Shown here one piece after another: positions 91-6,903 of a stretch of DNA of 6,903 nt. The notes below the pieces were generated by a model. It searched no databases, was not told the DNA's origin, and saw only the letters and a list, made by a program, of their open reading frames with translations. The stretch's first letter is position 1. The number at the start of each line of letters is the position of its first letter. This stretch comes from a virus. Taxonomy: Duplodnaviria; Heunggongvirae; Uroviricota; Caudoviricetes. The translations under genes were made by a program, and so were the position numbers. The stretch lies in the IMG/VR virus record IMGVR_UViG_2740892423_000009; one strand, written 5' to 3'.

Positions 91-540
91 CTACCCAGCA
101 TCATCGTTTATGATTCTAGTGATTATGGTTTCGTATGCAGTATCACAGCAATTGCACTTATAAGAAACTTTTGTGTCTAATCCTTTATAATCTTCTAACA
201 ATCCAACTAAAACCATATCTTTGCGTTCCAGCACATTGCTTGCTTTATCTAATACAGCTTCCTTATCTCTATTCTTTTTCTTAGGAAGTTTTAATGATTC
301 TTTATAGCATTCAAGACACGCACCTTGTTTTTTAAGAGTTTTGAAAGCAATTGTTCGCGTTGTGCTATGTTTCTTGCAGGTTATAGAAACGGGTGTATGT
401 TGCCCTTTCCACGGCACAACAAAACCGTTATAGATGTACCCCAACTCATCACAACGTTTAATGGCAATAGGTTCATAGTCAAGAGGCGTTTTTCTTGTAA
501 ATCCGGTGTAGTTGATATATTCAGCAAATAAAATCTCCAT
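91..540 (-). CDS. hypothetical Cys-rich, putative zinc-binding protein, 149 aa
   Basis: SD GGAGGA 4 nt upstream of the ATG at 540-538. Motifs C-x2-H-x16-C-x2-C (ITCKKHSTTRTIAFKTLKKQGACLEC) and C-x-C-C (YKCNCCDTAY) suggest a zinc ribbon or treble-clef. Tyr/Gly-rich N-terminus (EYINYTGF, LGYIYNGF). No HNH or GIY-YIG signature I can confirm. Confidence 0.7.
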   Translation of the reverse strand: MEILFAEYINYTGFTRKTPLDYEPIAIKRCDELGYIYNGFVVPWKGQHTPVSITCKKHSTTRTIAFKTLKKQGACLECYKESLKLPKKKNRDKEAVLDKASNVLERKDMVLVGLLEDYKGLDTKVSYKCNCCDTAYETIITRIINDDAG

Positions 541-548
541 GATTCCTC

Positions 549-578
549 CAAATAAAAAAGCGACCGAAATTGGTCGCT
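549..578 (-). terminator. rho-independent terminator (bidirectional-looking) between the 115-aa and 149-aa genes
   Basis: Stem agcgacc (559-565) and ggtcgct (572-578) with loop gaaatt. On the minus-strand RNA it is followed by UUUUUUAUUU (revcomp of 549-558), which runs straight into the GGAGGA SD of the 149-aa gene. On the + strand it is followed by cgtatttatt. Confidence 0.55.
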
Positions 579-592
579 CGTATTTATTAGAG

Positions 593-940
593 TTAGATGT
601 ATTCCATTATATACCCGGTAAATCTGAGTCCTTTAATGTAGTAATTAGTTGTGCCTACACACACCGCGCGTGCATCACCCAGACAGTTAAAACTATAAGG
701 ATTAACTACATCGACTTCTTGCCCGACACGAAAACGATACTTAGGACGTTTAGCCAATGTAGCGACACAAAACACGGTCCCTTTTTCATGATCGCGGATA
801 CATTCTTTATATTGTTTATGTTTAACTCTCTTCGCCTCAAAATCATAAGTCATTGATTCTGGACTAATGCCATTAATAAAAATACCGGAAAGCTGATCGA
901 CCGGATAAGTAGGAAATTCAGTGAAAATATTTTTAGCCAT
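593..940 (-). CDS. hypothetical protein, 115 aa
   Basis: ORF from the track with SD GGGGGT 5 nt upstream of the ATG. Protein MAKNIFTEFPTYPVDQLSGIF... contains four Cys (ECIRDH, FCVATL, FNCLGD, AVCVG). No family recognised. Confidence 0.65.
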   Translation of the reverse strand: MAKNIFTEFPTYPVDQLSGIFINGISPESMTYDFEAKRVKHKQYKECIRDHEKGTVFCVATLAKRPKYRFRVGQEVDVVNPYSFNCLGDARAVCVGTTNYYIKGLRFTGYIMEYI

Positions 941-944
941 GTTA

Positions 945-970
945 TACCCCCATAAGATTCTATGAGGGTA
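945..970 (-). promoter_or_regulatory. hairpin overlapping the SD of the 115-aa gene (possible translational control element)
   Basis: Inverted repeat tacccccata (945-954) and tatgagggta (961-970), 10 bp with one C/A mismatch and a 6-nt loop. On the mRNA the GGGGGU SD sits in the 3' arm, 5 nt before the AUG at 940. No U-tract follows, so it is not a classic terminator. Confidence 0.3.
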
Positions 971-978
971 TTTATGGA

Positions 979-1662
979 TTAAACGTATCTCATGCGCGAT
1001 TTAATGTGCTTATTAATGTTCTTAAGCATCATTTCCTCGTTGCTTTCCCACGATCCTAGCGTCGAATAACGAGTAGAAATTTTATCCGACTTAACGGCAA
1101 CAATTCGCTTACTCTGTTTCTGGATGCGTTTCTCTAAGCGACGTTTTGCCACCGCCGATCCATTCCTAGCGCGTTTGGTTCGGGATTTCTTAGGCTTGTA
1201 CTTCTTCATGATAAAAGTTCCTTCCTTGTTTTCTACCTTGATGAAGTTGCCGTTTTCGATGTTACGCATCATCTTACCGCCTTTGATGGCCTTAATGTTC
1301 CCGTGGGCGTCTAAGACCTTACCGTTAGCGATTGGCACTAGCTTATTGATTTTGCCACCATCGAAATAGTGTTTCAGATAGTCATCCTGACTGCCGATCT
1401 TCTTGTCCTTATCCCTTGCGCCCTTGATGAAGATTTGGTGTCTCGTCCCTGATCGGTTCTTGTAGTTGGTATTACCTACAGCTTGTTGAGTCCATCGAGT
1501 AGGTCTATCAACATTCTTGTTAATCTTCTTCTGGAGTGCTCTGGAAGCAAAGATCGCCCCTTCCCCTAGTGCCCTTTCGAATGTATCGGTTGCCTTTTCA
1601 GACCATTGCCGTAACGCTTTCTTAGTCCTTAGAGCGTTTCGTTTATTGGTACTGGTTGCCAT
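979..1662 (-). CDS. hypothetical strongly basic Lys/Arg-rich protein, 227 aa; possible nucleic-acid-binding or virion-internal protein
   Basis: SD AGGGGG 5 nt upstream of the ATG at 1662-1660. By my hand count about 57 Lys+Arg against about 19 Asp+Glu, with basic runs KKYKPKKSRTKRARNGSAVAKRRLEKRIQKQSKR. No catalytic motif recognised. Confidence 0.75.
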   Translation of the reverse strand: MATSTNKRNALRTKKALRQWSEKATDTFERALGEGAIFASRALQKKINKNVDRPTRWTQQAVGNTNYKNRSGTRHQIFIKGARDKDKKIGSQDDYLKHYFDGGKINKLVPIANGKVLDAHGNIKAIKGGKMMRNIENGNFIKVENKEGTFIMKKYKPKKSRTKRARNGSAVAKRRLEKRIQKQSKRIVAVKSDKISTRYSTLGSWESNEEMMLKNINKHIKSRMRYV

Positions 1663-1663
1663 G

Positions 1664-1834
1664 TTAGCCCCCTAATAACGAAAAGACCCCCGCCAGTGTC
1701 CTTAGCAATTGTTCATCCACGGTCATAGCCGGGAGTTCAAGCCCAAAGGACGTTAGCAGAGGTCTAATAGCTACGTTATAAGTGAGGGCGACAATCAAGA
1801 GATAACCAAAATATTTCTTAAGTTTATTCTTCAT
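1664..1834 (-). CDS. small hydrophobic membrane or secreted protein, 56 aa (not in the supplied ORF track)
   Basis: Hand translation of the minus strand gives MKNKLKKYFGYLLIVALTYNVAIRPLLTSFGLELPAMTVDEQLLRTLAGVFSLLGG*. SD AGGGGTG lies 5 nt upstream of the ATG at 1834-1832. Basic N-region plus hydrophobic core, no Cys, so not a lipoprotein. Stop TAA (1666-1664) is 1 nt from the next gene's ATG (TAACATG), implying translational coupling. Confidence 0.5.
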   Translation of the reverse strand: MKNKLKKYFGYLLIVALTYNVAIRPLLTSFGLELPAMTVDEQLLRTLAGVFSLLGG

Positions 1835-1852
1835 ATATTCACCCCTTTATTA

Positions 1853-2131
1853 TTATTTTTGTTTGAGTATGTCGAGAACTTGGTCAAATTTAGCATCCAT
1901 CGCAACCACTTTCTTCTCTATACCGTGTAGTGTTTGTTCCATTTGGTAAACACGTTCAGCAATCTGAGTATGGTTATTCTGCATCGTCTCAAACTTCTGG
2001 TTTAACAATGCGTCGCTGGATTCCAATTTAGATAACCTATTTTCAGTTGCTAATTGATTTCGGTGAAGTCTCCAAAGACCACCGCAAATTAAGGCGATAA
2101 CACCGATACCGCCATATATAATTTCAGTCAT
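1853..2131 (-). CDS. hypothetical single-pass membrane protein with a long coiled-coil domain, 92 aa
   Basis: ATG at 2131-2129 preceded by CGGGGGCGTA. N-terminal hydrophobic helix IIYGGIGVIALICGGLW followed by RLHRNQ, then about 70 aa rich in heptad-like Leu/Ile/Val/Met spacing (LSKLESSDALLNQKFETMQNNHTQIAERVYQMEQTLHGIEKKVVAMDAKFDQVLDILKQK). Three consecutive TAA stops. Confidence 0.7.
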   Translation of the reverse strand: MTEIIYGGIGVIALICGGLWRLHRNQLATENRLSKLESSDALLNQKFETMQNNHTQIAERVYQMEQTLHGIEKKVVAMDAKFDQVLDILKQK

Positions 2132-2170
2132 TACGCCCCCGATATTTTTATAATTTCATGGCAGAATTAT

Positions 2171-2216
2171 TTAGATAAAAATAATCCCGCCTAACTCAAA
2201 AGAATTAAGCGGGATT
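2171..2216 (-). terminator. rho-independent terminator downstream of the J-like gene
   Basis: On the minus-strand transcript: stem AATCCCGC (2216-2209) and GCGGGATT (2190-2183), extendable through a U-G wobble plus UAA/UUA, with a ~10-nt loop, followed at once by ATTTTTATCT (revcomp of 2173-2182). Lies 20 nt after the J stop. Confidence 0.6.
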
Positions 2217-2235
2217 AATTATTAAAATTAAATTT

Positions 2236-5200
2236 TTAAGAAACAGTAATACCCGTAGTAGCTTTTTTAGTTACCATTACAGTTAAATCACTGATCCATG
2301 TGCTAGGCGTCCAGTTGTTGATTGCGCTTGATTGCACTTCAAAGGTCAAGGTCACAGCACCTTTACCCGCTGGCATATCAATAACACCTGAGTAAAGACC
2401 AGTATTACCGCCATACGCCCTATTATACAACTCTGACCCATTCTTACGAACAATCAGGCGACAGGTGTCGTAATAGGTATTATTGTTCGACCCTTCACGC
2501 GCTCGCAATCCACCAAAACTAATTGCCGGAATAACGATTTGACGATCGAACTTGTGATCATCTTCAACGCGAACGGTTACTGTACCTTGCGGATAGCCAC
2601 CATAACCATTATCAACGTTAACATCACGGTGTGGGAACTTACGACCAATCACCTTAACGAAATCACCCTTAACCTGAGTAGCTTCAAGCATACCCTTAAT
2701 AACACAGCTAGAGTTAATCGTGACGTTGTTCAGAGTACCGGAATCAGCCGTGATATTACCTTTAACGGTAGCGTTCATGAACGTAGCACTACCGTTCTTA
2801 TTGATATGCCATCCGGTAGATCCGTTCCAGTTGGAAGACTGGATATAGTTACCGATTTTAGCGTTATCAATTGCGCCATTTACAATCTTGGCGTTGGTGA
2901 TCGCGCCGTCTTGGATTTTCGCTGAATTGATCGCAGCATTGCCAATTTTAGCCGTGGTGATACTAGCATCAGTAATCTGTGCTGATCCGATTGAGGCATT
3001 ACGAATCATCGCATTATCGAGATAAACCTTGTTACCTTCGATACCAAACGGGCAAACATCGGTCCCGTTCTGCGGAGCTACAGCAATTTTATCAGCCGTA
3101 AAGATGATTTTAGTCGGTTGTGCCGGATCGTTAGTTGCGCTCATGTGAATGCCAGCCACGCGACCATCTGCATTAACTGCTAGATTGTATTTGCTGTTAA
3201 TGGTTCCCTTCAAAGCATCGATCTTAACGTCCGCTTCCTGATTCACACCAGCAATCTTGCCATCCATTTCTACCCGAACTTGGTCAATCTTACTTGCGCT
3301 TGCTGCTTCACTGGTAGCAATAGCTTGTTTCAGGGTTGTAGCGGAGGCGCTAACTTCTTTGGTGATATCGCCTTTCAGTTCAGCTTTAACCTGATCAATC
3401 TTAGTTGAACTTGCCTTATCACCAGAAGCAATCAGACTCTTTAAGGTATCGGCTGAGGCTTGAACAGTTTTACCCGTCTCGGTAGTGATTTGCTTATGCA
3501 TTGCATCAATTTTAGCATCGGCATTAGCGCCAGCTTGAGCAATAGCATCAGCGATGGTTTCATCTAAGCGATCTTGTAAACCAATCAGGTCTTCCAGTGC
3601 TTCTTTGTCCTGATCGTCCCAGCTAATGGTAGATTTCATTTGCATGAAATACGGTTCAGACCAAACAGCATCATCCATACCGAAAATATCGTAGTGAGCA
3701 CCACGGATATAATAATCACCGTCAGCAATATCAAAGGAAGTATGGCTAACACTATTCGTGCTTACTGCCCTTGCATCTGAGAAAGTGTTGTCGGTTGCAT
3801 ACTGGATGATTGACCCTGCATAGTCATGTTCTACGTCATCCGCCCAGCTAACAAACGCAGTATTAAAGCCACCACGCGCACTAAAACCTTTCATTGGCTT
3901 ATGTTGTGGGTTGATAGCCACTAAACGCGCTGGGGCGCTCTCTGAGTTGTTATAGCCCTTAGCTGATACTTCTACCGTCAGTTGACGCGAAAGGCCGTTA
4001 AACTGGTTCATATCAAGCGTATAAGTCCATGATTCAGGATCGCGGGTACGGTACTGAATAGACTTACCAGCCTTGTTAGTCACCTTGATAATGTATGCTT
4101 CAAACAGGTCACTAAACTTGTTAGTTTCACCGTTGATCATCACATCTAATTGTTGCTGGTTTTCCCATTCGATAATCAGATCATTACCTTCGAAAGTTCC
4201 TGGCGTGCTACCCTGATTTTTGATTCGAATAACCGGAGTCGGCAATTCATAGGTAACGGTAGGATTCTGGTTAACCAGTTCTACCCAATCGGATCGCGCG
4301 ATGATACCGAAAGCACAAACTCGATAATCGTAGGAACGATCTTTTGCCAGTGCATTGACACTGAAAATTTGCTGTGAAGTCTGTCCCAACTTAATCCAGT
4401 TAGGTGATCCGCTTACACGGTAATCAATCTGGAAGCCGTAGCGGTTAAAATCTTCCGGTGCATCCCATGTCAAAGTAACGTTTTTACCGTAAATCGTCTC
4501 GCCAGTTGCCTTAATTCTGAAATTAGTAGGCTTCTGTACTGTCATTGAATCCGGTAAACCACTTGGTCTATTGTCTGGAGTTGCCGCATAGTTCAGGTCA
4601 GTATAAACCTGAGAATTATATTCTGTAGCGGTGATAGTCATCATCCCAGCAATACCAGAATCAATAGAACGATCAATTGCGGTAATACGCCAAAGTGAAT
4701 TATTCAGTTTCAATTCATCATAGGTTACGCTGATAACGTCCCAAACTTCGGCAGTGAATGCGTCAGTAGTCATAAAGCTGATAACCTGAGTGATACGAGA
4801 TTTATTTCGTTCTACACTCGCAAGTTTATCAATCTGGGCTTTAGACTTAACAAAACGATATTCAATATCTTTAGCGATAATTCGACCATCTTGACGAATA
4901 GTAGCATCGTTTTCAGCATCAGCCGGATAACGTAGCATTTGCTCGGAATAGTCAATTGATGGTTCCTGATACATCGCGTTAATGGTATTGAAATAACCGT
5001 TAGTGCCACCTGTTTTCAGTGATACCTTACCCATCATGATATTGTCTTCATTGAAGGTATGCTTAACAATATCAGGAGCATCCAGTTTCAGGGTAATTCT
5101 TCCGAAGGATTCGAACATCACCCCGCCGAAAGTCTGCATAAGGCTAGTTAAGTTCTCTTTAAAGCTGGCGTTCGGATCACATGCACCGTTTGAATGCAAA

Positions 5201-6012
5201 TCCATCTGGCGTACTTGCTTACGTACTTTCAGGAATGAATCAACGTTAATGTTTTCAATTGGTACGGATAAGCCATATTTTTCATTTGTTAGGTAGTGGA
5301 AAATCTGGTCCACGCCGTTAGTGCTAGCCTCAATAGCATTGGTTTCAAGGTTACGAATCTTTAAGCCCATAACATCGACTGCCACTTGGCTATTTGGTTG
5401 AAGGATATCAACACCAGCAGCAAGAGATTTGTCATCACGACGTAACACAATACACATGGTTGCAATGCCGTTACCCTTGTAAGCATCGGTCCAGTCTGAG
5501 CCTAAATGCTGTTTTGCCAGTGACAAAGCGGTGTTAGGATTCTTACCCGTGCGGAACTCAACCTCCAACACTTTCCGGTATTCTTCTTTAATGTTGCCCT
5601 TATCGAGAATGCCATCACGGATCGTCATGTTCTTACCAACAAGAACATTTTTATTATCGATAAACAGTGCTTTGTAGTGGTCGATTTCACCCTCTGCTAC
5701 AGCGAAGATTTGCACTAACTTATTGTTTTCTCTTTTAGAAATTGCTTTGTAAACGCAGTTTGTACCAGTACGGGTAACACCGAAAAGAACGGGTAATACT
5801 GTCTTCGGATCGTTTGATGTTCCTAGTGTCACCGCATTATCTGGGCTTTGTACTTTAGGTGTTTTTGGTGCGCCTACAGTGGAAGCGATCAAGGTCATTG
5901 CACCAGCAGCCATACCGATAGCGACTGCGGTCATAACAGAAAATGTTGCGGCTGCCGCCATCCCCGCCGAAGCACCAGCGATCACCGCGCCTACCAATAT
6001 TTCAAATCCCAT
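2236..6012 (-). CDS. central tail fibre / host specificity protein, lambda gpJ family, 1258 aa
   Basis: Long uninterrupted ORF with SD GGGGGTGA 3 nt upstream of the ATG. Residues ~495-790 form three tandem FN3-like segments (e.g. [28 protein letters not shown]...YDYRVCAFG). Residues ~940-1000 ([32 protein letters not shown]...[12 protein letters not shown]) and the C-terminal ~180 aa ([17 protein letters not shown]...[12 protein letters not shown]...[16 protein letters not shown]...[16 protein letters not shown]) resemble the equivalent lambda J regions as I recall them (lambda: SGTLSNVTIAENCTINGT...DDHPFDRQIVVLP...VDMPAGRGNVILTFTL...VQVMVIKKQALGISVV). Confidence 0.93.
   Translation of the reverse strand: [1258 protein letters not shown]
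2848..2982 (-). repeat. about 30-bp in-frame tandem repeats encoding decapeptide fibre repeats I-x-x-A-K-I-x-x-G-A
   Basis: Protein [43 protein letters not shown] (residues ~1011-1055). DNA shows recurring ttttagc / atcttggcg / attttcgctg / attttagccg units. Confidence 0.6.
3178..3615 (-). repeat. in-frame degenerate repeats encoding an Ala-rich coiled-coil segment of the J-like protein
   Basis: Protein repeats ...[11 protein letters not shown]... / ...[17 protein letters not shown]... / ...[17 protein letters not shown]... / ...[12 protein letters not shown].... Matching DNA repeats on the + strand, e.g. ggtcaatcttacttgcgcttgc (~3281), gatcaatcttagttgaacttgc (~3393), catcaattttagcatcggcattagc (~3505). 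Confidence 0.6.
5866..6000 (-). other. hydrophobic Gly/Ala-rich N-terminal segment of the J-like protein (residues ~5-49), predicted membrane-like or helical
   Basis: Translation [45 protein letters not shown] has no charged residue between E4 and K50. This is not how lambda J begins, from memory. Confidence 0.5.
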
Positions 6013-6431
6013 TATTCACCCCCGAATCTATAAACTTGTTCATAGTCAATGTCTGAAACAGGAATGGTCATCCAGATACCATCTTCTTCAACGAGGCCAT
6101 AACCGGAATAATGAGGAACTACGGAATAATAATTACGGTTTCCTAATTTGTGGGCTGTGACCAGTAAGTCGCCGTCCTGTAAATCATCAGTGACTAATTT
6201 GAAATGTTTCTTTATTGGTTGAAGGATGTTTGAATATCCGCTTAATTCTTTGCAGATTTTCAAGCCTTCTTCTTTAGTTGAATATTTTTTATAAAGAGAA
6301 TTATATAGGTCAGTACCAGCGAGAATATCGATGATCTTACATGCAATGAGATTGCAATCATTCTCGCCTTGAACGAACTCCTGACCTATTAAAGAATTGA
6401 TGTAATCGGTGATAAGCCTAGTTTTTAGCAT
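6012..6431 (-). CDS. NlpC/P60-family tail assembly protein (lambda gpK C-terminal-domain-like), 139 aa
   Basis: Start moved to the internal ATG at 6431-6429, which is preceded by GGAGGT plus a 7-nt spacer. The longer 191-aa ORF in the track would overlap the upstream ORF by about 110 nt. Protein MLKTRLITDY...ENDCNLIACKIID has a candidate catalytic Cys (codon 6354-6356) in a D-C-x-x-L context followed by conserved His residues, as in NlpC/P60 papain-like domains of gpK proteins. Stop TAA overlaps the J-like ATG by 1 nt (TAATG). Confidence 0.75.
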   Translation of the reverse strand: MLKTRLITDYINSLIGQEFVQGENDCNLIACKIIDILAGTDLYNSLYKKYSTKEEGLKICKELSGYSNILQPIKKHFKLVTDDLQDGDLLVTAHKLGNRNYYSVVPHYSGYGLVEEDGIWMTIPVSDIDYEQVYRFGGE

Positions 6432-6477
6432 GTTGAATACCTCCATGCTGTTATTTACTAGGCTTAGGGAGAAGGGA

Positions 6478-6822
6478 TTATTTCTTAGAGCTAAACCACT
6501 TCGACTCGCTTTGCCACTTCCCGGCACGAGAGAAGAATAGATCGTTCTCGTTTCCAACATAGGATCGGTGGATACCATCGGAGGCATGACTACGAGCGTT
6601 TTTATCTAGAACTTCCCAGATACTATTAAGCTGAAATTCTGATTCGTTTTTACACTCATCATCTTCATGTTCGATGTTAATACCGATGGAATCGACTACC
6701 CCACGGAAAACAGGGTAAGTAGTTTCAACCTTGCCCGTGTTGGGGTTAAGGAAAACCATCTCGATTTTCACATCAGATTTATCGAATTGCTTGTTTCGAA
6801 TCAGGCTAATTGTTGTGGTCAA
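6478..6822 (-). CDS. hypothetical tail-tip assembly protein, 114 aa; possibly a stand-alone N-terminal (MPN-like) half of a gpK-type protein
   Basis: ORF from the track. Its first codon is TTG (revcomp of 6820-6822), immediately after an in-frame TAG, with GGTGG about 10 nt upstream. Internal GTG/ATG starts lack a good SD. No clear JAMM HxH motif seen, so the MPN assignment is positional inference only. Sits directly upstream of the NlpC/P60 gene. Confidence 0.5.
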   Translation of the reverse strand: MTTTISLIRNKQFDKSDVKIEMVFLNPNTGKVETTYPVFRGVVDSIGINIEHEDDECKNESEFQLNSIWEVLDKNARSHASDGIHRSYVGNENDLFFSRAGKWQSESKWFSSKK

Positions 6823-6903
6823 CTAAAACTGGCCACCGCGTTAGAGTTTTTCCAGTATCGGTTTTCTGATTCGTTTGGTGGTAACCCACCATTATATTCG
6901 TGC
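6819..6903 (-). CDS. 3' end of an upstream tail gene (5' part lies beyond the window edge); possibly a gpL-like minor tail protein
   Basis: Minus-strand frame open from the window edge to a TGA at 6819-6821, translating ...HEYNGGLPPNESENRYWKNSNAVASFS*. The stop overlaps the TTG start of the next ORF by 2 nt. Function guessed only from position upstream of the gpK-like/J-like genes. A second frame is also open over these 81 nt, so the frame choice is tentative. Confidence 0.3.
   Translation of the reverse strand, partial: HEYNGGLPPNESENRYWKNSNAVASFS

Follow-up and report, generated by a model that had tools for sequence, protein, structure and literature searches.

The window analyzed here is a stretch of 6,903 nucleotides (nt) from a tailed-phage genome, IMG/VR record IMGVR_UViG_2740892423_000009, in which all substantial open reading frames (ORFs) lie on the minus strand. 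Our subject is the gene at positions 1853-2131 (minus), which encodes a protein of 92 amino acids (aa) with one transmembrane (TM) segment and a coiled coil, labelled hypothetical in RefSeq (WP_021515509.1). A preliminary description of the window had delimited this ORF exactly, from its ATG to its stop codon, had likened the product to a spanin without lysis partners and had judged a non-lysis role at least as likely as a lysis role. We find the gene linked to an endolysin gene across lineages, and we lean toward the interpretation that the 92-aa protein belongs, as a divergent member, to the DUF2730/releasin superfamily and serves as a releasin-like lysis factor in a non-transposable siphophage. 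DUF2730 (the Mu releasin family) is the closest family and was not considered in the earlier account.

The start codon follows a GGGGG Shine-Dalgarno sequence (2136-2140, minus) at a distance of 4 nt. Only Met-Thr-Glu precedes a Gly/Ala-rich TM helix formed by residues 4–20 (IIYGGIGVIALICGGLW; 2072-2122, minus), which is the sole strongly hydrophobic stretch of the protein (Kyte–Doolittle 2.02 over 17 residues). The motif W-(R/K)-L-H-R at residues 20–24 (2060-2074, minus) marks the predicted membrane–cytoplasm junction and is invariant in the core family. Residues 25–92 (1856-2059, minus) form an unbroken heptad helix of ∼10 nm, predicted to be cytoplasmic, in one continuous register with hydrophobic residues at 15 of 20 a/d positions. 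AlphaFold2 returns a single continuous helix spanning residues 2–91 (mean predicted local distance difference test score, pLDDT, 80.6), and the arrangement described earlier, one N-terminal TM segment followed by ∼70 aa of coiled coil, is borne out.

Orthologues of 72–98% identity are present in Escherichia coli and Salmonella, of 56% in Providencia and of 42–46% in Edwardsiella tarda and one further lineage. Differences at third codon positions exceed those at first and second positions in all 10 pairwise comparisons of orthologues from these five lineages, and the E. coli and Salmonella genes differ with pN 0.149 and pS 0.812. The ORF is therefore a real gene under purifying selection rather than a chance reading frame. 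Residue conservation follows the coiled-coil pattern, being higher at positions a, d, e and g than at b, c and f. G17, R32 and E37 are invariant family-wide and W20 is nearly so, whereas no Cys is conserved and the helix has no hinge. The TM segment contains 5–8 Gly and Ala residues in the five orthologues and 3–10 family-wide, compared with 2–3 in the TM domains (TMDs) of i-spanins. The junction motif varies with distance, reading W-HFH-RRS in Edwardsiella, W-KLS-KR in L010 and W-AM-RRS in Mu gp25; the E. coli protein has L-H between its two basic residues instead of an adjacent pair.

None of eight family members has Lys or Arg before the TM segment, where most carry an acidic residue, and a basic flank follows it. 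The difference in net charge between the two flanks, net(N)–net(C), is –1 to –4 in 8/8 members. Given these charges and the positive-inside rule, the helix is predicted to be cytoplasmic (N-out/C-in).

Sequence searches of Pfam, NCBIfam and the PDB with the 92-aa protein or its alignment gave at most sub-threshold coiled-coil noise. In a tblastn search, 50,697 phage records had no match to the 92-aa, 115-aa or 227-aa proteins of the locus, and a scan of species-representative genomes gave only one spurious 13-residue match. The best PHROG match, for 11 of 14 family members, is phrog_12015 (function unknown), alongside scattered matches to spanin, holin, hemolysin and bacteriocin families. A dual-start (holin/antiholin) motif was considered and rejected: an in-frame upstream TTG is present in Salmonella and Edwardsiella, there is none in E. 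coli, and the motif is thus not conserved.

An endolysin-linked gene set

The 92-aa gene is preceded by a terminator-like hairpin of 16 pairs with a T-run (2172-2217, minus), directly after the gene for a J-like tail-tip protein. Terminator-like sites number 5 in a scan of the window, against 1.4 expected, and in each of the five lineages J is followed at this place by a strong hairpin and T-run, though the stem sequences differ. This hairpin divides the tail genes from the gene set that the 92-aa gene heads. Nearly every gene of the set has a Shine-Dalgarno sequence of the GGGGG/GGAGG type at the same spacing in all lineages, and the gaps along the five-gene set measure 18–75, 1, 14–40 and –4 to 10 nt.

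The second gene (1664-1834, minus) encodes a 56-aa bitopic membrane protein with a basic N-terminus and a predicted N-in/C-out topology. It is conserved beside the 92-aa gene and belongs to a wide family of prophage proteins of 54–100 aa; its net(N)–net(C) of +3 to +7 is opposite in sign to that of the 92-aa family. The third (979-1662, minus), which starts 1 nt past the 56-aa stop codon in the five core lineages, encodes a very basic protein of 227 aa (isoelectric point 10.8) and is a conserved member of the set. The fourth (593-940, minus) encodes a conserved 115-aa protein, and in intact prophages a gene for an M15 endolysin follows it within 10 nt or overlaps it. Neither the basic nor the 115-aa protein has Pfam or PDB relatives, and the sole PHROG signal is a weak but consistent match of the basic protein to phrog_1924, annotated as 'minor tail protein'. 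The predicted structure of the basic protein is unusable (mean pLDDT 42.4).

In the intact E. coli H2 prophage, the genes after J encode, in order, proteins of 92, 56, 227 and 115 aa and a 117-aa Peptidase_M15_3 endolysin. Extending the search for lysis genes to the rest of the prophage, as the preliminary description had suggested, thus places an endolysin (phrog_894, E 1.7e-45) four genes downstream of the 92-aa gene and just beyond the window. The enzyme has no signal, no signal-anchor-release (SAR) segment and no N-terminal hydrophobic stretch. The statement that no endolysin lies nearby holds inside the window, where none is found, and fails for the intact prophage; the impression of a protein without lysis partners arises because the window boundary cuts off the endolysin. 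In E. coli HCP5S3_I4, the 115-aa and endolysin genes have been separated by an inserted homing-endonuclease-like gene, itself later split by IS2, and it is this insertion together with IS2 that displaced the endolysin from the window.

The same five-gene segment is present in the Salmonella, Providencia, Edwardsiella and L010 lineages, and the L068 lineage (from a JGI metagenome) has the same layout with a Peptidase_M15_4 at its end. In L071 (Candidatus Symbiopectobacterium) and L074 (a Klebsiella/Enterobacteriaceae-type prophage), the TM–coiled-coil gene adjoins a gene for a signal-less GH24 lysozyme; homologues of the basic, 115-aa and small TM proteins follow in a different order, and the partner set is kept. 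L072, an ENA metagenome phage, encodes the TM–coiled-coil protein, a 75-aa protein with two TM segments, a 48-aa protein with one, and then an M15 endolysin. A gene of the 92-aa family thus lies no more than four genes upstream of an endolysin gene in each of these (E. coli, Salmonella, Providencia, Edwardsiella, L010, L068, L071, L072 and L074), whereas the paired enzyme varies between M15_3, M15_4 and GH24. In most lineages the family travels with the small bitopic protein, a basic protein of ∼190 aa (227 aa in the window) and a protein of ∼110 aa. The link of the 92-aa family to an endolysin is consistent, and the enzyme family of that endolysin can be exchanged. Because an endolysin gene follows within four genes across lineages, a lysis-linked role is likelier than a non-lysis one, and the earlier weighting of these alternatives is reversed.

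Other features of the endolysin region were noted. The 115-aa protein carries the motifs FPTYP..QLS..NGISPESMT.DF and FRFRVGQE.D..NPY (593-940, minus, in the window; 19580-19933 in L002) and has no family match. Its gene always stands directly before, or overlaps, that of a short M15 endolysin consisting of the catalytic domain only; the protein could be an endolysin accessory subunit. Endonuclease-type genes (GIY-YIG SegE-like or CapR/HNH-like) lie beside the endolysin gene in L071 (6804-7235), L074 (5670-6119) and L010 (10363-11340), as well as at 91-540 of the window, and in L074 the lysozyme gene is inverted with respect to the rest of the set. This suggests that endonuclease-driven exchange is concentrated at the endolysin locus, a hotspot that perhaps accounts for the swapping of endolysin families. 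Acidic proteins of 65 aa, after the E. coli endolysin (L002 19390-19587, minus), and of 146 aa, at the same place in L010 (9865-10305), share the motif K(I/V)VFDEVD..L; both lack TM segments and family matches.

Relationship to DUF2730 proteins and to spanins

The releasin of phage Mu, gp25, is a 99-aa membrane-tethered cytoplasmic lysis protein of DUF2730 (Pfam PF10805; Chamblee et al. 2022, PMC9239132). Its predicted topology is N-out/C-in: four residues are periplasmic and the cytoplasmic domain measures 73 aa. DUF2730 proteins are ∼100 aa long, have the TMD as part of the domain and carry an RR/RK motif at the membrane–cytoplasm junction; their genes always lie within five genes of an endolysin gene, downstream of it, and the endolysins are diverse and include cytoplasmic enzymes (PMC9239132). 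Among active phages, DUF2730 was found only in transposable ones. The one mechanism demonstrated for gp25 is the release of a SAR endolysin, and the role of DUF2730 proteins paired with a cytoplasmic endolysin was left open (PMC9239132).

The 92-aa protein shares with gp25 an N-terminal TMD, a predicted N-out/C-in topology, some 3–4 periplasmic residues and a helical cytoplasmic domain of ∼70 aa. Its own C-terminal domain is 72 aa long, its charge bias is as in gp25, and its W-R/K-L-H-R motif is the counterpart of the RR/RK junction motif of DUF2730. Also shared with DUF2730 are an endolysin within five genes and a diversity of endolysin types, cytoplasmic ones included. Mu gp25 carries the residues G17, R32 and E37 that are invariant in the 92-aa family as well as the near-invariant W20.

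Scored as a single sequence on a hidden Markov model (HMM) of the 92-aa family, gp25 beats 500 of 500 shuffles and most controls, with one i-spanin higher. Single-sequence scoring was dropped as non-specific on account of that i-spanin, and for the same reason a profile–profile comparison with matched controls was adopted, using a DUF2730 profile of five sequences (from Table S1 of PMC9239132) and an i-spanin control profile of three PseT.3-type sequences. A 90-aa sister protein, widespread and encoded at the same position in L074-type prophages, provides the bridge. It has a weak Pfam DUF2730 match; the match of P0078, an outlying member of the family, is at 0.0041 and 17.6 bits, with a gathering score of 24.9 and a gp25 control at 2.5e-13. 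In hhalign, the core family aligns to the 90-aa sister group at 95.2% (E 2.8e-8), the sister group to the five-sequence DUF2730 profile at 88.6% (E 2.6e-6, 81 columns) and the combined family to the DUF2730 profile at 81.6% (E 1.1e-5). The same queries reach 1.3–11.8% against the i-spanin profile, and DUF2730 itself reaches 0.8% against it.

A number of observations weigh against this assignment. The core family alone reaches only 3.2% against the DUF2730 profile, and the core E. coli and Salmonella proteins, that of the window included, have no Pfam DUF2730 match; the link is therefore transitive. The profiles are small, and sequences made of a TM segment and a coiled coil inflate similarity. 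The single i-spanin of Pm5461 scores 19–25 bits on the 92-aa family HMM, above gp25. A conserved mid-domain Pro of DUF2730 is missing from the 92-aa protein, which is predicted to be a continuous helix. The 92-aa gene is upstream of the endolysin gene, whereas DUF2730 genes are downstream, and it resides in a non-transposable phage, whereas DUF2730 was confined to transposable ones (PMC9239132). SAR-endolysin release cannot apply directly, since the M15 endolysin lacks a SAR domain. The topology of the 92-aa protein rests on prediction. Two members of the gene set have no assigned function, one of them being weakly similar to a 'minor tail protein' PHROG, and the 92-aa gene travels with three conserved proteins that are not described for Mu. 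Weighing these points against the profile comparisons, we consider membership of the 92-aa family in the DUF2730 superfamily, by way of the sister group, to be probable.

The sister family comprises proteins of 86–93 aa with weak DUF2730 matches, encoded at 4903-5175 in L074-L077 and 3001-3270 in L097-L116. The prophages that carry it have J-like tail tips and look non-transposable in the stretches examined, at variance with the statement in the Mu study (PMC9239132). Scans of viral contigs for gp25 and for the Pm5461 i-spanin recovered near-identical sequences only.

The architecture that drew the comparison with spanins is a genuine likeness. Two-component i-spanins (lambda Rz, T7 gp18.5, T4/RB49 PseT.3) also have an N-terminal TM segment followed by a long helical or coiled-coil domain and are encoded near endolysins, and those of the T4 type (RB49, Pm5461) are, at ∼107–112 aa, similar in size to the 92-aa protein. 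The 92-aa protein could accordingly be imagined as an Rz/PseT.3-like i-spanin whose outer-membrane partner is non-canonical or lost, with a periplasmic coiled coil that disrupts the outer membrane. Weak matches of core members to the 'Rz-like spanin' family phrog_739 (0.002–0.04; 3.8e-6 for P0078), the Pm5461 score on the family HMM and the absence of any other recognizable spanin in the E. coli, Salmonella and Providencia prophage versions favor this. The last point is less telling, since ∼15% of the phages that infect Gram-negative bacteria lack a spanin (bioRxiv 10.1101/515445) and its absence here is not unusual.

Five lines of evidence lead us to conclude that the 92-aa protein is not an Rz-type i-spanin. 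First, it has no partner. The genes for i- and o-spanins may be nested, overlapping or separate (PMC9636201), and a search of all frames in E. coli, Salmonella, Providencia, L068, L071 and L072 shows no lipobox ORF nested in, overlapping or adjoining the 92-aa gene; the 56-aa neighbor has no Cys, as the preliminary description had noted, and the embedded or alternative-frame lipoprotein that it had raised as a possibility is absent. Synonymous sites in the 92-aa gene are saturated and hence no embedded frame is conserved within it. Second, the charge bias around the TM segment is the reverse of that in four of the five genuine i-spanins compared, in either TM window. The comparators (lambda Rz, T7 18.5, RB49 PseT.3, Pm5461 and the Edwardsiella i-spanin) have net(N)–net(C) values of 0 to +4 in one window, and lambda Rz is ambiguous, with 0 or –1 depending on the window.

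Third, the E. tarda prophage (L008/L009) encodes a 96-aa orthologue together with a separate, overlapping i-/o-spanin pair (108 aa and 83 aa, the latter with the lipobox ISG|C) of the T4 PseT.3/PseT.2 type (phrog_739, 2.9e-14; phrog_812, 1.4e-20). Fourth, profile similarity is low, in contrast to the single-sequence Pm5461 score: hhalign gives 0.5% against the Edwardsiella i-spanin and 1.3–11.8% against the three-sequence PseT.3-type profile, compared with 82–89% for DUF2730. Fifth, the protein has neither a conserved Cys (i-spanins have a periplasmic one) nor a hinge. In addition, its predicted topology is opposite to that of i-spanins, and a 70-residue helix (∼10 nm) is too short to span the periplasm alone. 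The earlier view that this is not an ordinary Rz spanin thus stands. Its suggestion that an adjacent endolysin with clear Rz homology would mark an ordinary lysis gene is answered in part, as the endolysin is present and clear Rz homology is not seen. An i-spanin identity of any kind appears very unlikely.

The Edwardsiella spanin genes (L008 9763-10337, minus; L009 5214-5788) occupy an unusual site. Located downstream of the serine recombinase gene, they are encoded on the strand opposite the late operon, convergently with the endolysin gene, and are absent from the other lineages.

The prophage and its mobile-element edges

Upstream of the gene set, the window contains a tail protein fragment (6478-6822, minus), a DUF6950 protein gene (6012-6587, minus) and the gene for the 1258-aa J-like tail-tip protein with Phage_Tail_Tip and Ig_GpJ_C domains (2236-6012, minus); a 149-aa endonuclease-like fragment (91-540, minus) lies at the other end. 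A chromosomal prophage of E. coli HCP5S3_I4 is 100% identical to the window over positions 96-6810, and 57 of 5,426 complete E. coli genomes contain related copies; no plasmid or sequenced phage matches. The intact prophage of E. coli H2 is 35.8 kb long, resides in hicB and encodes a serine recombinase. With this recombinase, a gpA-type terminase large subunit and a J-like tail tip, the prophage type is non-transposable, a serine-integrase siphophage with a GTA-like tail tip (as in gene transfer agents) and in this respect unlike transposable Mu.

The first ∼95 and last ∼93 bases of the window are insertion-sequence ends, unlike the HCP5S3_I4 chromosome, and we therefore regard the window as a degraded prophage fragment between mobile elements. 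The last ∼93 bases (6811-6903) are a repeat found in 3,452 of the 5,426 complete E. coli genomes, in up to 24 copies each, and labelled transposon in Salmonella phage SEN22; the right-hand junction itself occurs in no complete genome. This repeat cuts the tail gene at 6478-6822 to 114 aa, compared with 217 aa in intact prophages, which makes the prophage copy in the window defective. A homing-endonuclease-like gene (phrog_681; CapR domain) broken by IS2 accounts for the 149-aa ORF, which is its N-terminal part. The C-terminal part, 175 aa matching adjacent profile positions of phrog_681, lies beyond IS2 in HCP5S3_I4 (L001 18072-18599), and the gene is missing from the intact H2 prophage.

At its IS2 border (1-95), the window carries the end of the element opposite to the one found at this junction in HCP5S3_I4, where two inverted IS2 copies lie ∼20 kb apart, so that the window may represent an inversion isomer or come from a different strain. 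A bidirectional terminator-like hairpin (558-579, both strands; GAGCGACC...GGTCGCT with T-runs) separates the 115-aa gene from the endonuclease fragment. It probably came with the endonuclease cassette, because in H2 the endolysin gene directly follows the 115-aa gene. The N-terminus of the J-like protein (∼5860-6012, the first ∼50 codons) has a Gly/Ala-rich hydrophobic stretch of ∼45 residues (MGFEILVGAVIAGASAGMAAAATFSVMTAVAIGMAAGAMTLIAS...; Kyte–Doolittle 1.88) that resembles two membrane-like helices and is kept in the Salmonella, Edwardsiella and L010 J proteins. In L002, an unannotated 90-aa ORF (19035-19307, plus) overlaps the 3' end of the recombinase gene; its N-terminus is signal-peptide-like (MKMIKILGLILSMNSCLALA|TVDQ), and this ORF at the prophage end may encode a secreted moron product.

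Possible roles in lysis and their implications

A cytoplasmic M15 endolysin without a signal needs some holin, and the 92-aa protein could itself be a single-TM, N-out/C-in hole-former, with a pore of Gly/Ala-rich TM helices and a cytoplasmic coiled coil for oligomerization and timing. It is small, with one Gly/Ala-rich TMD and a charged C-terminal domain, and in L071 its gene is directly upstream of that of a signal-less GH24 endolysin. The top PHROG of the Edwardsiella orthologue is the holin family phrog_1296 (5.8e-6), to which a Salmonella orthologue aligns over nearly its full length (0.0072), and P0078 has a faint Holin_LLH match. Set against this, a holin PHROG is matched by only 2 of 14 family members. 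Holins of class I have three TM segments and an N-out/C-in topology, those of class II two TM segments (N-in/C-in) and those of class III one, N-in/C-out, with a large periplasmic domain (PMC9636201); the one predicted N-out/C-in segment of the 92-aa protein fits none of these. In L072 the 75-aa protein with two TM segments is encoded between the TM–coiled-coil gene and the endolysin gene, and the single-TM analogues Mu gp25 and Ms6 Gp5 reportedly do not work as holins by themselves.

More canonical candidates occupy another position. The slot directly after terS encodes intact small multi-TM proteins in 22 of 23 loci of viral contigs, in two non-homologous versions: a 94-aa protein with three TM segments, or a pair of 56–59 aa (one TM segment) and 57 aa (two to three). 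The ORFs lie at 6495-6668 and 6722-6895 in L003 (minus) and 2200-2484 in L044 (minus), and also in L045-L067; the pair is unannotated in the RefSeq records examined, and none of the proteins matches a family in PHROG or Pfam. Because such a mosaic slot is typical of holins, these appear to be the most holin-like genes of this phage group, and we regard them as candidate holins. The argument that the 92-aa protein must be the holin by elimination was dropped once this slot was found. The 92-aa protein is probably not the holin itself, and we rate that role as unlikely.

A role outside lysis would make the protein either a moron product, expressed from the prophage and involved in superinfection exclusion or in blocking DNA entry, or a membrane factor in tail or virion assembly that works with the basic and 115-aa proteins. 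The position of the 92-aa gene fits such a role: it is the next gene after that of the receptor-binding J-like protein and is separated from it by a terminator, at a site that in lambdoid phages often harbors morons and exclusion genes (cor and lom, for example). The consistent, weak 'minor tail protein' match of the basic protein also fits, and if the holin is encoded elsewhere, co-expression with a cytoplasmic endolysin would be harmless in lysogens. Unlike variable morons, however, the 92-aa gene is a conserved core gene with fixed partners across genera, down to ∼30% identity. The interval from the terminator to the 92-aa gene has no predicted sigma-70-like promoter, the L072 relative is in a pure cassette of TM proteins and endolysin with no recognizable tail genes nearby, and the profile-level similarity is to a family of lysis proteins. 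We consider this alternative improbable.

There are several precedents for additional single-TM lysis factors besides Mu gp25, namely PBSX XhlA, Ms6 Gp5, the N-out/C-in proteins of Gordonia phages and LambdaSo Lcc6 (PMC9239132, PMC6834076, PMC6116114, PMC9671378, bioRxiv 10.1101/2024.01.23.576932). Like the 92-aa protein, PBSX XhlA, which is accompanied by the XhlB holin and the XlyA amidase, is a small coiled-coil protein with one TM segment, encoded after the tail genes at the head of the cassette; it is upstream of a multi-TM holin and an endolysin, and the L072 cassette has the same layout. The order within XhlA is reversed, with the coiled coil first and the TM segment C-terminal. Its host is Gram-positive, and the similarity is below significance, with weak matches of Pfam XhlA (PF10779) to 3 of 12 family members (best 4.9e-4) and none to the window protein. 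XhlA is reported to be essential for lysis (PMC6834076).

Ms6 Gp5 and the 'holin-like' proteins with one TM segment from Gordonia phages share with the 92-aa protein a single N-terminal TM segment and a mostly cytoplasmic body (79–145 aa). Proteins of this kind are always encoded beside other small TM proteins of the lysis cassette. The Gordonia proteins are predicted to be N-out/C-in; Gp5 tunes lysis timing via the 2-TM holin Gp4 and does not complement a lambda S defect (PMC6116114, PMC9671378). The hosts of these phages are actinobacterial, the Gordonia proteins have no predicted coiled coil, and the likeness to the 92-aa protein is one of description. Lcc6 of Shewanella phage LambdaSo is a small lysis-cluster protein that is reportedly needed for lysis at the point where the holin acts or the endolysin is released; it represents an extra factor distinct from holin, endolysin and spanin. 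It is reported to be shorter and to lack DUF2730 and notable similarity to gp25, and it works alongside a pinholin and a SAR endolysin (bioRxiv 10.1101/2024.01.23.576932).

The 92-aa gene is the first of a compact late-operon segment that also encodes its bitopic partner, two soluble proteins and the signal-less M15 endolysin. If the 92-aa protein is a releasin-like factor, as we favor, it would be a type I (N-out/C-in) inner-membrane protein with ∼3 periplasmic residues, a Gly/Ala-rich TM helix and a W-R/K-x-H-R junction, and its cytoplasmic helix of ∼70 residues would oligomerize as a coiled coil. TM helices and coiled coil together could build an oligomer on the cytoplasmic side of the membrane. 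Together with the oppositely oriented 56-aa partner, and probably with a separate holin from the post-terS slot, such an oligomer may facilitate, or set the timing of, the inner-membrane step by which the cytoplasmic M15 endolysin gains access to the cell wall. Unlike a spanin, it would not bridge the periplasm.

It is also conceivable, though we think it quite improbable, that the four conserved non-enzymatic proteins constitute an unrecognized multi-protein lysis system of spanin-less enterobacterial siphophages, in which the DUF2730-type protein exports or activates the cytoplasmic endolysin and the basic protein or the small partner replaces the spanin at the outer membrane. The lack of a recognizable spanin in the E. 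coli, Salmonella and Providencia versions leaves room for this arrangement, which if true would be a Gram-negative envelope route distinct from holin–endolysin–spanin.

The annotation of a 'spanin-like' hypothetical protein is corrected by these results, and architecture alone is insufficient to call an i-spanin. The finding does not represent a categorically new system; it would extend a barely understood family of lysis proteins in which gp25 is the only characterized DUF2730 member. If the link to DUF2730 is true, relatives of releasin would be widespread in integrase-type siphophage prophages of Enterobacterales, beyond the Mu-like phages; the small partner of the sister group alone is present in hundreds to thousands of contigs. 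These relatives would always be tied to an endolysin and three uncharacterized partners, often in phages without a recognizable spanin, and the hicB prophage of E. coli H2 would offer a tractable system for membrane-tethered cytoplasmic lysis proteins.

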